Source: an uncultured delta proteobacterium
GTDB taxonomy: Bacteria; Desulfobacterota; Binatia; UBA9968
Direction: 5' to 3'
Assembly: GCA_963737905.1 (NCBI GenBank)
Contig: CAVTUQ010000011.1
Location: 56,924 to 120,923 of the forward strand
Length of the DNA: 64,000 nucleotides
The notes under the pieces were generated by a model that saw nothing but the letters and a program-made list of their open reading frames with translations, was not told the origin of the DNA and searched no databases. A program made the translations under genes and the position numbers. Positions 42,595 through 49,316 of this stretch are shown here, in pieces; positions within the stretch are counted from its first letter, which is position 1; the number at the start of each line of letters is the position of its first letter.

Positions 42595-43107
42595 TCACGC
42601 CTTTAAGGATTGCTCTTGTCCCGCAATTCGGCCCTGAAGTTCCATCAAGCCGTCCAGAACCGCTTCAGGCCGTGGAGGACATCCTGGAACATACACATCG
42701 ACTGGAATGATACGATCAATTCCCTGAACCGTCGCATAATTATCGTAAAAACCACCGCTCGCGGCACAGGCACCAAATGCCATCACCCACTTGGGCTCGG
42801 ACATTTGCTCGTAGACACGCTTCAGGACCGGGGAAAGTTTGTGATTGACCGTGCCTATGACCATCAATAGGTCCGCCTGCCTTGGGCTGAAGCGCGGCAG
42901 CAGAGCACCGAAACGGTCGATATCGTAAGGCGACATCGACAGAGACATATACTCCATCGCGCAGCAGGCTGTCGCGAACGGGTATGGAAACAGTGAATAC
43001 TTCCGCGCCCAACCTACCGCCTTGTCCACACGAGTCAGCACAACGGAATCCGCCAGGAGCGCCTCTGGGCCCGTTTTTGATTCAATCGAGGAGTTCGCAG
43101 CTTGCAT
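42595..43107 (-). CDS. nuoB: NADH-quinone oxidoreductase subunit B (stand-alone)
   Basis: TACCAMEY, SPRQADL, YEQMSEPKWVMAFGACA, VDVYVPGCPPRPE. Confidence 0.93.
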   Translation of the reverse strand: MQAANSSIESKTGPEALLADSVVLTRVDKAVGWARKYSLFPYPFATACCAMEYMSLSMSPYDIDRFGALLPRFSPRQADLLMVIGTVNHKLSPVLKRVYEQMSEPKWVMAFGACAASGGFYDNYATVQGIDRIIPVDVYVPGCPPRPEAVLDGLMELQGRIAGQEQSLKA

Positions 43108-43193
43108 GAGCTTACGGTACTACTTCCCCCTCAGCTAAACAATAATGGGGCTATGAAAACGTCGCGAGGGACGATTGCTACATGTCAACGCCG

Positions 43194-43394
43194 TTAAAGC
43201 TTGACTACATTGATGGCCTGCGGCCCCTTTTCTCCCTGTGCGATTTCAAATTCCACCGATTGGCCTTCGTTGAGGGTTTTAAATCCGTCCCCTTGGATCG
43301 CCGTGTAGTGAACAAAAACGTCACCGCCGCCTTCTTTCTCGATAAAACCATATCCCTTGGAGTTGTTAAACCATTTTACTTTACCAGTTGCCAT
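43194..43394 (-). CDS. csp: Cold-shock protein
   Basis: [31 protein letters not shown]; RBS GGAGG. Confidence 0.96.
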
Positions 43395-43532
43395 TGCTTA
43401 GAACCTCCCGATCCACGTTGCTTCAACTCCCATGCGAATTTTGAGTCTCGTAGTTGTGCACCTCTCCCACCCCCGCGACCCGCGTTTTTGAACTCCATGC
43501 AAGTCTGGACGATCCTTTCTGTAGGGACGGAC

Positions 43533-43560
43533 ATTAGATAAAGCTGTGTATCGTTGTCAA
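43533..43560 (-). promoter_or_regulatory. Putative sigma70 promoter of csp, implying a ~130-nt 5' UTR
   Basis: Minus strand TTGACA-16 nt-TCTAAT. Confidence 0.5.
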
Positions 43561-43663
43561 GACAAAATTTTCTGTCGAATGCCTCAGCATCTCTGCGGTG
43601 GCTATCGCTGCCAAGCCCCCCCTTCTCCTCCCAAGGAGGGCAAAACGCAGCGGTCGGAGCTTT

Positions 43664-43827
43664 TTGGGGGACTACACATTGTAACGCTCTCGATGGTCAC
43701 TCGTATCAAGGAGACTTATCGTATGACTATCGCCCTGTGGGTTGGTCCGGCGAGAAAGGTAATCGTCGCCTCCTTTGAAAGGGGTTGCACCCTGGAATGC
43801 TCCCACAATACCCCGCAAAGTCCCCAA
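43664..43827 (-). ncRNA. Candidate rod-shaped structured RNA (family unknown)
   Basis: Nested end-to-end pairing on the minus strand: GGGGACU/AGUCCCC, UAUUGUGG/UUACAAUG, UCAAAGGAGGC/GUCUCCUUGA, GAUUA/UAGUC, UCGCC/GGCGA. A TAGAAT -10 element (43836-43841) lies just upstream. Confidence 0.45.
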
Positions 43828-43980
43828 TTGCGCTAATTCTAGGAGGCGCCCAGAATTGAATCTTCAGTATTCCTGGGGGACCAAAGATCTTTGCCTATTC
43901 TTTAAGCAACCGCTAACCAACTGAATCCAATAGTGAAATTCATATGGCGGCATGATTTACGTCGAGAAAACTATTTTATA

Positions 43981-44009
43981 TTGACTTCGGGTGCTTTTTT
44001 CATTATAAA
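43981..44009 (+). promoter_or_regulatory. Putative sigma70 promoter of thrB
   Basis: TTGACT-17 nt-TATAAA. Confidence 0.6.
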
Positions 44010-44099
44010 TGGCTTAGTTAGCGTTTGAATGATCGGATAGTCTTGGTCGGAAAGAGGGCTCTCCCGCGTCGGTCGGTAGGTGATCTAGAAAGCAACCGG

Positions 44100-45122
44100 A
44101 TGGCCATTTACACTGAAATCACGAAAAAGGATGCGACGAAGATCGTGGAGGAGTTCACTCTCGGTGATCTCGTATCCTGTTCTGGGATCAAGAATGGTTC
44201 GGTGAACACGCACTACCTGCTGGAAACCAAGCGGGGTCGATTTTTCGCCAAGATCGACGAAATCAAGAGCGAACTTGAGGTAAAGCAAGAGCTAGACCTA
44301 CTGTTTCACCTCAGGAAACAAGGTTTCCCTTGTCTACAACCACTGAAAACCAAAACGGGAAGATACTACATCGAGTATAGGGGTAAATGTCTCACAGTGA
44401 GTCGCTATCTGGACGGCATGGAACTCCCAATCGACTCTCTCACCGCAAACCATCTAGGTATTCTCGGTCACACATTGGCCAACCTGCATCTAATCGGAAG
44501 AAGCTACAAGAAGGGGATCGATAACCGCTTCGGATTCAGCCGAATCGTGGCAATCTACCGGGAGGTGCGTCGACAACTCCCCTCTCACTTGAGAAACATC
44601 GTTCGGGTCTTGGATGATGAATTCTCCTACCTCGAGAATTACCTTGACAACAATCTGCCCAAGGGAATTATTCACGGAGATTTCTTCCCGGACAATGTAA
44701 AGTTCAAAGGCAGTCGGTTGGTTGGGGTGGTGGACTTCGAAGCCGCATGCAGGGGGAAACTCATTTACGATCTCGCTACCGCGGTCAACGCGCTTTGTTT
44801 CGTTGACCAGCGTTACCGCATTGACCGCTTCGAAGCCTTGATTTCCGGCTATGAAGGTCTCCGGCCTCTCTCTCTACCGGAATGGGATTCGTTTCCCAAC
44901 GAGTTACGTTTTTCCGCCTTGCGGTTTACGGTCACGCGAATTAAGGATTTCTATCTAAGAAAAACAGATGACAGCCAGCGGATCTACAAAGACTTCAAGG
45001 AGTTTTACGATAGGCTGTTGGTCCTTAGGCGGGAGAAGAGTGGCGGTATGGAGGACATACTCCTCGCTATGGCAACCGGATACGATTACCGAAAATACCA
45101 GAAATCGAAGCCTTCCAAATAA
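44100..45122 (+). CDS. thrB: Homoserine kinase type II (APH-like)
   Basis: MAIYT, GI..G..NT.Y, LANLH, LPKGIIHGDFFPDNV, VDFEAAC, LRFTVTRI.D. Confidence 0.85.
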   Translation: MAIYTEITKKDATKIVEEFTLGDLVSCSGIKNGSVNTHYLLETKRGRFFAKIDEIKSELEVKQELDLLFHLRKQGFPCLQPLKTKTGRYYIEYRGKCLTVSRYLDGMELPIDSLTANHLGILGHTLANLHLIGRSYKKGIDNRFGFSRIVAIYREVRRQLPSHLRNIVRVLDDEFSYLENYLDNNLPKGIIHGDFFPDNVKFKGSRLVGVVDFEAACRGKLIYDLATAVNALCFVDQRYRIDRFEALISGYEGLRPLSLPEWDSFPNELRFSALRFTVTRIKDFYLRKTDDSQRIYKDFKEFYDRLLVLRREKSGGMEDILLAMATGYDYRKYQKSKPSK

Positions 45123-45635: not shown

Positions 45636-45749
45636 CACCTTATCCAGAGTGGTGGAGGGAGCGGCCCTTCGAAGCCACAGCAACCGGTTTCTGAAAACGG
45701 AAGGCGGTGCTAATTCCTGCCCCCTTAATTCGGGGGGAAAGATAAGGTG
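45636..45749 (+). promoter_or_regulatory. SAM-I (S-box) riboswitch aptamer
   Basis: P1 CACCTTATC/GATAAGGTG; conserved ATCCAGAG, GGAGGGA..GGCCC..GAAGCC, CAGCAACC, GGTGCTAATTCC, GAAAGATAAG. Confidence 0.95.
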
Positions 45750-45754
45750 AGGTT

Positions 45755-45800
45755 AAGCCTCTTCTTATCTTTAAGTTAGATTGGGAAGAGGTTTTTTTTT
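45755..45800 (+). terminator. Riboswitch expression-platform intrinsic terminator
   Basis: Stem AAGCCTCTTCTTA/TGGGAAGAGGTTT followed by T9; CTTATCTT in the 5' arm can alternatively pair with AAGATAAG of P1 (antiterminator). Confidence 0.85.
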
Positions 45801-45805
45801 AGCGG

Positions 45806-47896
45806 ATGTTCCCTTTGAATACTCGTCTTACCACAGACCAGATCGAGCGCTACAGCAGGCAGATCATGATCCCCGATCTCGGCGGTAAGGGACAGATACG
45901 GCTCCGGCAAGCTCGAGTTCTAATCATAGGGGCCGGTGGCCTAGGCTCACCGGCGGCCCTCTATTTAGGGGCTGCAGGTGTCGGGACTCTCGGCCTGGTC
46001 GATCCTGATCGTGTGGAATTGTCGAATCTACAACGCCAAATCCTCCACACCACGCTTGACCTCAGCCACCCGAAGGTAGAATCGGCCAAGGATAAAATCA
46101 GCAAACTCAACCCAGAGGTGGAAGTCGTCATCTATCCCGTCCGGCTCGAAGAAGACAACGGCGCCGCTATCTTTTCGGGGTATGATTTTATCGTTGACGG
46201 CAGCGACAATTTTCCCACCAAATTTTTGGTTAACGATCTTGCGGTGAGTATGGACATTGCTTTTTCTCACGCCGGAATCGTCCGTTTGCAAGGACAAACG
46301 ATGACCGTCGTGCCTCGGAAAAGCGCCTGCTATCGTTGTCTGTTCAGAGAGCCACCTCCTCCCGGAGAAATATTGAATTGCCAGCAAGCCGGTATACTCG
46401 GAGCCGTTGCAGGTACCATGGGTTCGATCCAGGCAACCGAAGCGATTAAGTATCTTGCCGGCTTTGAGGAAGGATTGCTGACGGATCGATTGCTGACGTA
46501 CGACGCAAAATCGATGAAATTTCATATGATAGACGTAAACAGAGACGTTCATTGTGCCGCATGTGGTGTAGAACGGATCGCACGGCGAGTGTCTCCCCAA
46601 GCACCTAAAACGCAAGCAACGGAAGGGATAACCATGAGCTTCGTTAGAGGGCTCCAATGCAAGGAATGCAGGCAGGAATATCCAAAAGAGCCGCTGCACG
46701 TGTGCGAAACCTGCTTCGGTCCTCTGGAGATTGTGTATGATTATGACGGCATCAAAAAGTCCATCAGCCGTGAAAAGATCGCCTCCCGTGACAAAAGCCT
46801 GTGGCGCTATCGCGAACTACTGCCCATCGATGGAGAACCGCAGGCGGGTCTTTATTCGGGCTTTACCCCTCTCGTCCGCGCCCGGAGGCTCGGCGAAGCG
46901 TTGGACGTCAAAGAACTCTACATCAAAGATGATTCAGTGAACCACCCCACTTTTTCATACAAAGATCGCGTTGTTGCTGTTGCGATATCAAAGGCCATAG
47001 AGTTCGGATTCGACACCGTCTCCTGCGCGTCGACTGGAAATCTCGCCAATGCAGTCGCGGCCCACGCCGCGAGAGCTGGGTTGAACTGCTACGTTTTTAT
47101 CCCCGAGGGCCTGGAACAGGGGAAGATCGTCGGGTCCGCCATTTATGGACCCAAAACCGTCGCGATCAAAGGAAATTACGATGACGTGAATCGGCTCTGC
47201 AGTGAGATCGGCGACAAATACGGCTGGGCCTTTGTCAACGTCAATCTGAGACCCTATTACTCAGAAGGCGCCAAGACGCATGGCTTCGAGGTGGCGGAAC
47301 AGCTTGGCTGGAAGCTTCCCAAACACATTGTCGTTGCATCCGCCGGGGGAACGATCCTGCCCAAGCTTGCAAAGGCTTTCAAAGAATTGATTAAAGTCGG
47401 TCTGGTCGAGGATACCGGCTGTAAGATTTATTCCGCTCAAGCCGCCGGCTGTGCCCCGATCATCAACGCGCTCCAAGAGGGAACTGATTTGATCAATCCC
47501 GTGAAACCAAACACAATCGCGAGCTCCATCGCTATTGGAAATCCGGCAGACGGCCACTATGTCCTTCAAGCCCTGCGGGAGTCGGGCGGATGGGGCGAAA
47601 GCGTCACCGACCAAGAAATTCTCGAAGGGATCAAACTGTTGGCCCAGACCGAGGGAATATTTACCGAGCCAGCGGGTGGAACCGAAGTGGCTGTGACCAA
47701 GAAACTCATCCAAAAGGGCAGAATCCCCCGGGACGAGTCCCTCGTCATTAGCATCACCGGCAACGGGTATAAGACTCTGGAAGCGGTCGCGGGCAGTGTC
47801 GAAAAGCCGTTGACCATCAATGCGACCCTGCGAAACTTCGATGACCTTTACCAACAGCTCAACCCGACGGTTACAGCAAAAGCCGCGAGCGGTTAG
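45806..47896 (+). CDS. In-frame fusion of a MoeB/ThiF E1-like adenylyltransferase (aa 1-~255) and a threonine-synthase-like PLP enzyme (from Met277 at 46634)
   Basis: RYSRQ, GAGGLG, SNLQRQ, DGSDNF, CYRC/CAAC zinc site; then CKEC/CETC, LWRYRELLP, PTFSYKDR, ASTGN, IAIGNP, ITGNGYK. No stop between the domains. Confidence 0.9.
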   Translation: MFPLNTRLTTDQIERYSRQIMIPDLGGKGQIRLRQARVLIIGAGGLGSPAALYLGAAGVGTLGLVDPDRVELSNLQRQILHTTLDLSHPKVESAKDKISKLNPEVEVVIYPVRLEEDNGAAIFSGYDFIVDGSDNFPTKFLVNDLAVSMDIAFSHAGIVRLQGQTMTVVPRKSACYRCLFREPPPPGEILNCQQAGILGAVAGTMGSIQATEAIKYLAGFEEGLLTDRLLTYDAKSMKFHMIDVNRDVHCAACGVERIARRVSPQAPKTQATEGITMSFVRGLQCKECRQEYPKEPLHVCETCFGPLEIVYDYDGIKKSISREKIASRDKSLWRYRELLPIDGEPQAGLYSGFTPLVRARRLGEALDVKELYIKDDSVNHPTFSYKDRVVAVAISKAIEFGFDTVSCASTGNLANAVAAHAARAGLNCYVFIPEGLEQGKIVGSAIYGPKTVAIKGNYDDVNRLCSEIGDKYGWAFVNVNLRPYYSEGAKTHGFEVAEQLGWKLPKHIVVASAGGTILPKLAKAFKELIKVGLVEDTGCKIYSAQAAGCAPIINALQEGTDLINPVKPNTIASSIAIGNPADGHYVLQALRESGGWGESVTDQEILEGIKLLAQTEGIFTEPAGGTEVAVTKKLIQKGRIPRDESLVISITGNGYKTLEAVAGSVEKPLTINATLRNFDDLYQQLNPTVTAKAASG

Positions 47897-48018: not shown

Positions 48019-48306
48019 ATGCCAGTGCAAGTTCGTGTTCCCACCCCGCTCAGAAAGTTCACTCAGGGCGCCGATGAGGTTAGCGCGCAGGGCGCCAATA
48101 TTAAGGCGTTAGTAGACGATCTTGAGAAGAATTTCCCCGGCATCAAGGAACGGATCTGCGATGAAACCGGAAAGATCCGCCGTTTCGTAAACGTTTACCT
48201 CAACGGCGACGACATCCGTTTTTTACAAAACCTGGAAACCGGACTGAAAGAGGGAGATAATATTTCTATTGTCCCGGCCATTGCCGGGGGCGCTAATTCT
48301 CACTAG
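48019..48306 (+). CDS. Ubiquitin-like sulfur carrier (MoaD/ThiS/CysO family) with C-terminal GG-ANSH extension
   Basis: VRVPTPLRKFT, RRFVNVYLNGDDIR, VPAIAGG-ANSH; RBS AAGGAGG. Confidence 0.93.
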   Translation: MPVQVRVPTPLRKFTQGADEVSAQGANIKALVDDLEKNFPGIKERICDETGKIRRFVNVYLNGDDIRFLQNLETGLKEGDNISIVPAIAGGANSH

Positions 48307-48314
48307 AGCGGACG

Positions 48315-49316
48315 ATGGCACGAGCCACACCTAATCTCCGATTGGTTTCGGTCCCGCCAGCAGAGCTGAAGAGAGCCGAATCCGTCCTGGATCTGATCGG
48401 CGATACTCCTTTACTGGAAATCCGAAACCTCGCGGAAGGGCTGCCGGCCAGGGTTCGAATTTTTGCTAAACTGGAAGGATTCAATCCGGGCGGATCAGTT
48501 AAGGACCGGGCAGCATTGAGAATGGTCCAAGAGGGAATTCGTACTGGAAATCTTCGACCGGACAAGACAATTTTGGATTCCAGCTCGGGAAACACGGGGA
48601 TCGCACTTGCCATGATCGGTCGCGTGTTCGGCTATCCCGTGGAATTGGTGATTCCGGAAAACGTGAGCAGGGAACGGAAGCAAATCATTTATGCCTACGG
48701 CGCAAAGATCATCTATAGCGATCCGTTGGAAGGCTCCGATGGCGCCATCCGTCTCTGCAGAAAAATCCTCGCCGAAAGCCCCGATCGCTATTTCAAGCCG
48801 GATCAGTACTTTAATCCAATGAATCCTCAGGCCCATTATGAAACTACGGGTCCGGAAATCTATCGGCAAACTCAGCAAACCATTACCCATTTCATCGCGG
48901 GCATCGGCACGGGCGGAACCCTTATGGGCACGGGCCGATATCTCAAGGAGAGGAATCCAAACATAAGAATTATCGCAGTGGAGCCCGATGATGCACTTCA
49001 TGGCCTCGAAGGGCTCAAGCACATGGCCAGTTCCATTGTCCCCGGCATTTACAAGGAAGAAGAATTGGACGACAAGATCTCTGTTTCCACCGAGGACGCG
49101 TATGCGATGGTTTATCGTTTGAGCCAGGAAGAAGGAATTTTAGTTGGCCAGTCATCGGGCGCAGCCATGTTTGCGACTTTGAAGCTGGCACGCAAACTCC
49201 GCGAAGCCACACTCGTTACGGTATTCCCCGATTTCGGTGACAAATATCTCAGCACAAATCTCTGGGTCGGTTGGCGTGACCGGATGGCGGTCGGTAACCT
49301 GTCATTTTCCATCTAG
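48315..49316 (+). CDS. cysM: Cysteine synthase family PLP enzyme (CysM-like)
   Basis: IGDTPL, KLEGFNPGGSVKDR, SSGNTG, HYETTGPEI, GIGTGGT, GQSSGAA, FPDFGDKYLS. Confidence 0.88.
   Translation: MARATPNLRLVSVPPAELKRAESVLDLIGDTPLLEIRNLAEGLPARVRIFAKLEGFNPGGSVKDRAALRMVQEGIRTGNLRPDKTILDSSSGNTGIALAMIGRVFGYPVELVIPENVSRERKQIIYAYGAKIIYSDPLEGSDGAIRLCRKILAESPDRYFKPDQYFNPMNPQAHYETTGPEIYRQTQQTITHFIAGIGTGGTLMGTGRYLKERNPNIRIIAVEPDDALHGLEGLKHMASSIVPGIYKEEELDDKISVSTEDAYAMVYRLSQEEGILVGQSSGAAMFATLKLARKLREATLVTVFPDFGDKYLSTNLWVGWRDRMAVGNLSFSI

Follow-up and report, generated by a model that had tools for sequence, protein, structure and literature searches.

The open reading frame (ORF) at 45806..47896 on the forward strand of the window analysed here, a stretch of 64,000 nucleotides from the genome assembly of an uncultured delta proteobacterium to which the coordinates below refer, runs from an E1-like activating enzyme of the ThiF/MoeB type into a ThrC-like pyridoxal phosphate (PLP) enzyme. 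Very probably, this is no evolved fusion, but an ordinary adjacent gene pair, coding for a rhodanese-less E1 and a MetM-type PLP enzyme, which is joined in this assembly alone by one absent T and thus represents a private accident. If the ORF were accepted as it stands, it would present the first case of an E1 joined to the very PLP enzyme by which its carrier is used, and would speak for substrate channeling in protein-thiocarboxylate sulfur transfer; the evidence says that this is not so, and a one-base event of a single assembly would mislead annotation as well as surveys of domain architecture. The locus itself is what proves useful here, with its riboswitch operon and a pair of metM-like and sulfur carrier genes that is found across many phyla. 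In the following, G000 designates this assembly, G001 a genome of the same genus and G025 a complete genome of the same order.

The joined frame and its parts

All 696 codons of the ORF are open with zero internal stops, as the sequence-only reading of this DNA had observed for the transition from the MoeB to the ThrC-like domain. The parts of the frame, with the site of the absent base, are as follows.

45806..46585, forward strand: E1-like adenylyltransferase, ThiF/MoeB type, without rhodanese domain, in its native frame (residues 1-260)
46585..46586, forward strand: missing-base site, where relatives carry a T (alignment with G001 and bridging contigs)
46586..46633, forward strand: 16 codons of the joined frame only (residues 261-276), frameshifted E1 tail plus former intergenic spacer
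46634..47896, forward strand: ThrC-like PLP enzyme of 420 amino acids (aa) with N-terminal Cys4 zinc ribbon, proposed MetM-type homocysteine synthase

The ThiF domain occupies residues 16-250 (Pfam 1e-77, profile positions 1-236 of 238), and, because the NCBIfam models for MoeB, MoeZ and UbaA match the ThiF part alone, the E1 is taken to lack a rhodanese domain, a point on which the earlier reading was right. The motifs IGAGGLGS (GxGxxG), CYRC, NCQQAG and CAAC can be read in the translation and provide the nucleotide-binding GxGxxG, the two CxxC zinc motifs and the loop cysteine of E1 enzymes. The second CxxC (residues 250-253) is the last conserved E1 element; HCAACG, which includes it (residues 249-254), is followed by a linker of 22 residues up to M277. 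The PALP domain of the PLP enzyme covers residues 352-652 (Pfam 8.5e-67), with a weak zinc-ribbon-like match at residues 285-308.

Within the codons that belong to the joined frame only lie the ancestral stop, now out of frame (TAA at 46606-46608), and a Shine-Dalgarno sequence, GGAAGGG (46621-46627), which ends six bases 5' of ATG 46634, the codon of residue 277. A linker of about 20 residues ending in a ribosome-binding site and a start at 46634 had been described from the sequence and is accurately so described (22 residues, GGAAGGG-N6-ATG, with a start that aligns in 19/19 related-genome and 75/75 metagenome loci); the supposedly internal elements are the ordinary ribosome-binding site and start of the ThrC-like gene.

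The two genes are separate in relatives

Among 41 genomes, the window's own and 40 relatives, a stop-free match over residues 1-696 is confined to G000, with six relatives showing an end-to-end match in a single frame interrupted by 1-7 internal stops and the remaining relatives two separate adjacent matches. At the related-genome loci, the E1 gene possesses its own stop in 19/19 cases (17/17 without the unpublished genomes G006 and G012, loci L005 and L010), and the start ATG of the ThrC-like gene aligns with M277 in all 19, each time with a GAAAGGA/GGAGG-type motif ahead. The distance from the E1 stop to this ATG ranges from -29 to +267 bases, the two genes being in the same frame at seven loci and in different frames at 12.

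Equally, 80 metagenome loci of 71-93% identity were fetched, of which 75 span the junction and five do not, and all 75 junctions are split, with a start homologous to 46634 behind a Shine-Dalgarno sequence. The ThrC-like start is thereby conserved in 94/94 loci (19 related-genome and 75 metagenome), while the frame offset is 1 in 32/75 metagenome junctions and both genes share a frame in 25/75. At 80 distant loci from many phyla, found via alignment of the ThrC-like domain, an E1 gene lies within 3 kb in 16, downstream of the carrier gene in 11 and directly upstream in five; none of these five is fused, and all five show a separate stop and a homologous ATG. Overall, 0/99 junctions (19 related, 75 metagenome and five distant) are fused, a count drawn from locus sets that may partly overlap, since a metagenome-assembled genome and a metagenome contig may represent identical DNA. 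That no fusion occurs despite many in-frame pairs suggests that fusions are not kept. The comparison of orthologous loci for the fused versus the split state had been set beforehand as the test of the fusion, and all relatives examined have separate genes.

On the protein level, 5.8 billion clustered proteins were searched within a length range of 382-1218 aa, and the best 120 relatives are all stand-alone proteins of 416-447 aa, 85-92% identical, whose coverage of 59-63% of the query corresponds to the ThrC-like part. When 1.84 billion representatives were scanned without a profile, no sound fused relative appeared among the best 150 of 45,442 matches. The sole protein with ThiF and PALP among these 150, the singleton cluster P0132, aligns soundly with residues 28-190 and from residue 277 onwards, with noise in between, over the C-terminal third of ThiF, and at its own end; since this is the signature of frameshifts, it was not counted as a natural fusion. 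ThrC-like proteins occur in other domain combinations, namely with a C-terminal LeuA allosteric domain (P0233, P0238 and P0260, 611-619 aa), with a C-terminal PadR domain (P0197 and P0202, 491-496 aa) and, in P0216, with an N-terminal homoserine dehydrogenase fragment.

One absent base joins the frames

The E1 part is 93-94% identical on the protein level to the separate E1 gene of G001, and the DNA alignment shows one base fewer in the window, which reads GCACGG-CGAG against GCAAGGTCAAG in G001. Four public runs with near-identical DNA, the source run of the assembly not being among them, were compared over 46200-47000 as Logan contigs. The junction is bridged by three contigs (X1 record 3, X3 record 6 and X7 record 7, the latter from an RNA library), all of which carry a T after 46585; they derive from three studies and are ~98% identical, with 9-14 other differences over 549-746 bases, and list no difference from the window at TAA 46606-46608. 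The contigs of the fourth run, X2, end at 46568 and resume at 46604, one loose end being adapter-like, so that they do not bridge the junction and do not inform on the indel. Exact-pattern scans of metagenome and genome contigs (46570-46605 with two degenerate letters and one optional base) matched neither junction allele and are hence uninformative on the fused allele.

With the T restored, the E1 frame is read beyond codon 260 as far as its stop, TAA 46606-46608, which leaves a 25-base spacer to ATG 46634 and an offset of 1, as in G001. As one T is absent, the E1 frame misses its stop and crosses the 25-base spacer in frame with ATG 46634, and residues 261-276 consequently are the translated frameshifted tail and the old spacer including its Shine-Dalgarno sequence. 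The deletion site falls 3' of the last conserved E1 element, in a tail that is variable in length and sequence among relatives, and strain-level substitutions in the bridging contigs are bunched nearby (46575, 46588, 46610 and 46625).

An indel that restores a stop in the linker, the observation which the sequence-only reading had named as speaking against a fusion, is thus what the three contigs present. Its alternative proposal, a recent stop-loss, holds insofar as a separation was recently lost with the old ribosome-binding site and start kept, but it is the loss of one base in the unconstrained 3' tail of the E1 gene, perhaps a consensus error, and not a substitution of the stop, that opened the frame. 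As judged from these alignments, the E1-PLP joined frame is a trait neither of the gene family nor of near-identical populations.

Real deletion or consensus error

Whether the deletion is real and recent or an error of the consensus sequence is a matter of about even odds, the event being private and recent either way.

On the first account, which has somewhat less than an even chance, the deletion truly occurred, and did so very recently, and the organism would produce a 696-aa E1-MetM fusion and probably a free 420-aa MetM, tolerated but not selected. This accords with a deletion placed behind the last conserved E1 element, with both domains intact and a tail variable among relatives, as well as with the bunching of substitutions in this stretch and the commonness of indels in comparable stretches. 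In relatives at offset 1 (32/75), a one-base deletion leads to offset 0, so that a fusion arises easily by accident. On the other hand, none of the 99 junctions is fused although 25/75 metagenome and 7/19 genome loci are in frame, with only a stop and short spacer DNA between the genes, and the deletion allele turned up in no independent sequence, the scans having returned neither allele. That a real deletion would amount to a fusion being born, in which one mRNA yields a 76-kDa E1-MetM, by translation across the old spacer, and a free MetM, from the retained Shine-Dalgarno sequence and ATG, both being active and E1 being tethered to the carrier-consuming enzyme, is unlikely.

On the second account, likewise just short of even, the absent T is a consensus or assembly error and the organism keeps two separate genes like its relatives, in agreement with the T in all three near-identical bridging contigs. 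Frame breaks in G000 were screened with 291 ORFs of at least 200 aa from twenty 20-kb stretches of G025, 135 of which have a G000 orthologue at 50% identity or more; 124 of these align fully, four partially, and seven are split across frames with abutting pieces, amounting to ~9 frame changes. All seven split genes show full-length Pfam domains in G025. The breaks include housekeeping genes expected to be essential for a free-living cell, ilvD and nuoD, besides the five others of 135, and are located as follows.

G000:C25:330152-330165: frame break in ilvD (dihydroxy-acid dehydratase), intact in G025
G000:C5:59764-62302: two adjacent aminotransferases, frame-split, intact in G025
G000:C5:69869-71007: nuoD (NADH dehydrogenase 49-kDa subunit), frame-split, intact in G025
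G000:C14:77989-82334: Lhr helicase in three frames, intact in G025
G000:C7:309883-310636; C19:113133-113868: haem-oxygenase-like gene and dienelactone hydrolase, frame-split, intact in G025

Of the 20 other genomes with an ilvD homologue, 18 show it as one unbroken match; G000 and G010 have it split and G003 spread over two contigs, the break being private to G000 among most relatives. A Cys/Met PLP gene of the MetB/MetY family at G000:C1:25747-26876 is distributed over three frames, its counterpart in G001 being an intact ORF of 404 aa. Moreover, G000 contains homopolymer runs of 424 T and 57 G, as well as 23 and 14 G, which look like technical artefacts, and its marker completeness is 87% although it consists of just 46 contigs. 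Against an error speak the rate itself, as ~9 frame changes per ~150 kb of conserved coding sequence make an error in one 74-base stretch rare a priori, the missing-base site, which is no homopolymer, and the otherwise clean window, the remaining 52 ORFs of which have full-length domains and include no broken gene. A homopolymer context at the G000 frame breaks was looked for and gave no clear pattern. A second member of the Cys/Met PLP family is intact at G000:C17:9713-10861.

Several observations weigh against a mere accident of this assembly. The bridging contigs all differ from the window and none of the four runs is the assembly source, so that the population behind the assembly could truly carry the fused allele. 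The other 52 window ORFs having full-length domains, the assembly is not error-ridden locally. An alignment of 4.2 kb between the window and G001 contains 18 gaps, each of them located in a spacer or a gene tail and none in a conserved gene body; with spacer and tail indels this common, a real one-base difference in a 74-base unconstrained stretch is not unlikely. Frame breaks between G000 and G001 are, the focal gene aside, approximately symmetric, with three credible splits of 54 in G000 and one to three of 68 in G001; in the comparison of G001 ORFs with G000, two of five split cases were dropped, as stops inside the aligned pieces indicate probably spurious antisense ORFs. As G001 itself shows one to three discrepancies, the pair by itself is no evidence that G000 is the poorer of the two, and the G025 screen is more telling.

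An evolved, selected E1-PLP fusion which channels the thiocarboxylated carrier from the activating to the transfer enzyme, put forward in the sequence-only reading as one option, is very improbable and already close to refuted, since the frame open across both domains, the existence of natural E1 fusions such as the rhodanese-ThiF of G000 and the one carrier targeted by both activities are outweighed by 0/99 fused junctions, the lack of a sound fused protein in the best 150 matches, a linker of untouched spacer DNA with Shine-Dalgarno sequence, ATG and out-of-frame TAA all retained, unfused 98%-identical populations with the stop-restoring T and an unfixed gene order (E1 downstream of the carrier in 11/16 distant loci holding one).

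An operon under a SAM riboswitch

The pair of an E1 and a MetM-like gene, with the carrier and CysM-like genes that follow, forms a predicted riboswitch operon which, by comparison of the loci, is conserved in an uncultured family whose relatives are labelled Binataceae or Deltaproteobacteria. Apart from the joined frame, its elements are as follows.

45637..45748, forward strand: SAM-I (S-box) riboswitch aptamer for S-adenosylmethionine (SAM), RF00162 90.1 bits, gathering threshold 44.4, E 6.9e-21, model positions 1-108 of 108
45755..45800, forward strand: expression platform with a terminator hairpin and, behind it, nine consecutive U, the U-run ending five bases before ATG 45806
48019..48306, forward strand: ThiS/MoaD-type sulfur carrier, MetO/CysO-like, 95 aa, ending in AIAGG-ANSH, Pfam ThiS 2.2e-16
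48315..49316, forward strand: CysM/CysK-family PLP enzyme, 333 aa, PALP 7.2e-74

The SAM-I riboswitch is located 5' of the E1 gene in 18/19 related loci, the 19th being cut at its 5' end, and a SAM riboswitch 5' of the ThrC-like gene in eight of 20 distant loci scanned (80 fetched). The RNA fold of 45735-45808 has a free energy of -21.8 kcal/mol (z -2.9), with 2/200 shuffles as stable. A simple terminator scan reported just the small inner hairpin at 45749-45761 and missed the riboswitch terminator because of its large loop. Compared with RF00162 in general, the full-length aptamer with terminator hairpin and U-run shows no notable difference.

The carrier matches the NCBIfam models SAMP1 (59.7 bits) and MoaD family (54.6 bits) and is found 3' of the ThrC-like gene in 18/19 related loci, the match in L004 being cut at the locus end, and in 68/80 distant loci. 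Its tail varies: the window has GG-ANSH (48285-48310) where 14/17 complete related ends have GG and one residue (C, R, Y, V, Q, S, L or N), and in 44/86 tails read the carrier ends exactly at GG. Versus G001, which has GGC-stop, the window possesses one T fewer after 48291, a second one-base difference at a gene 3' end in the same operon. In about six distant loci (among L041-L120) the carrier frame runs past GG into a conserved extension of ~80 residues (...YLTYPQ.LIKEP...), and in one distant locus it enters ThiF-like sequence, a possible carrier-E1 fusion.

The CysM-like enzyme exceeds the cut-off of the cysKM subfamily model (TIGR01136, 351 bits, cut-off 344) and scores 361 bits with the cysM model TIGR01138 (cut-off 394). 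Its gene is present downstream in 16/19 related loci, the other three loci ending before reaching this position.

Probably homocysteine rather than threonine

For the PLP enzyme, the reading as a homocysteine synthase of the MetM type fits better than that as a threonine synthase, and, from family knowledge and context, the locus most likely belongs to a MetM/MetO thiocarboxylate route. The earlier assignment of the two domains to ThiF/MoeB and a ThrC-like family is correct. The MetM/MetO/MoeZ/Mec thiocarboxylate route of Streptomyces albulus was reportedly described by Hasebe et al. in 2024 in Appl Environ Microbiol (90:e0124724). According to PMC13759103 (Table 2; Appendix 4 of the bioRxiv version) and PMC12172450, the conversion of O-phosphohomoserine to homocysteine in S. 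albulus involves MetM, the carrier MetO, MoeZ and Mec, and metM is preceded by a SAM riboswitch (PMC12172450). The GapMind authors state that MetM often carries a mistaken threonine synthase annotation, and a published comparison gives 51.6% identity between ThrC of Microcystis aeruginosa and S. albulus MetM.

A counterpoint to the homocysteine assignment is that a curated NCBIfam model calls the PLP domain 'threonine synthase', just above its cut-off (PRK08197, residues 277-663, 305 bits against 303; TIGR00260, 291 bits), and that the nearest solved structures by sequence are all threonine synthases, with no MetM among them. A plain threonine synthase in an operon without a homocysteine route is nevertheless improbable, as the operon is controlled by a SAM riboswitch and not by a threonine signal, here and in 18/19 relatives, and as the sulfur carrier gene follows the ThrC-like gene in 68/80 distant loci. 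Additionally, G000 encodes a second ThrC-like paralogue, 36% identical (G000:C4:172256-173422), and MetM is prone to misannotation according to the GapMind authors. Indirectly, a chain of identities connects the window protein with MetM, as it is 59% identical to a homologue of Microcystis novacekii (L101), and the M. aeruginosa protein, in the published comparison, is 51.6% identical to S. albulus MetM. MetX and MetA were not found in G000, nor MetY above cut-off, an absence which is soft as G000 is 87% complete. Elsewhere in G000, unlinked to the operon, an ORF for a JAMM protein of 163 aa (C19) and one for a rhodanese-ThiF protein of 389 aa (C7) are present.

On the reading as a MetM-type route, low SAM would let transcription pass the terminator of the S-box riboswitch. 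The tail of the 95-aa carrier behind GG would be trimmed by a JAMM protease encoded elsewhere, E1 would adenylate the C-terminal glycine, and a sulfur donor acting in trans would turn the adenylate into a thiocarboxylate, from which, together with O-phosphohomoserine, the MetM-like enzyme would form homocysteine. The CysM-like enzyme may form cysteine likewise. The operon would thereby extend the recently described O-phosphohomoserine thiocarboxylate route and flag 'threonine synthase' annotations that are probably wrong.

Relation to known sulfur carrier systems

With the S. albulus route, the locus shares a ThrC-homologous PLP gene beside a ThiS/MoaD carrier gene and a SAM riboswitch upstream; an E1 and a JAMM protease, which may serve the carrier, are present in the genome, and in the window, a homoserine-kinase-like gene is additionally nearby. 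The window differs in its dedicated, rhodanese-less E1 gene directly 5' of the metM-like gene, as the named Streptomyces E1 is MoeZ, and in the CysM-like gene which closes the operon.

In the CysO/CysM/MoeZ/Mec+ cysteine route of Mycobacterium tuberculosis, the carrier thiocarboxylate donates sulfur to a PLP enzyme whose substrate is an O-phospho amino acid. The window shares with this route the CysM-family gene directly after the carrier gene, yet its operon is under SAM and not under cysteine control and adds a ThrC-like enzyme. The CysM-like protein of the window falls under the cysM equivalog cut-off and surpasses that of the cysKM subfamily. The joined frame also resembles MoeZ and the rhodanese fusions of the MOCS3/Uba4 type in that an E1 core is joined to a partner from the same sulfur relay; those fusions are conserved across lineages, whereas the E1-ThrC joint is found in 0/99 junctions and its linker is raw spacer DNA.

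Genes upstream of the operon

Outside the riboswitch unit, one further gene may be connected to the pathway.

44025..45122, forward strand: homoserine-kinase-like gene of the APH family, 365 aa, Pfam APH 1e-30

The protein remains below the homoserine kinase cut-offs (NF003558, 208.9 bits versus 271; TIGR00938, 205 versus 255.9), and a role as supplier of O-phosphohomoserine is possible. Between this gene and the riboswitch operon lies a minus-strand ORF of 148 aa without family. The ~900 bases at 43107-44025 contain only two ORFs (119 and 96 aa), which have no Pfam match, and are bordered by a lone nuoB-like gene on the minus strand (42595-43107).

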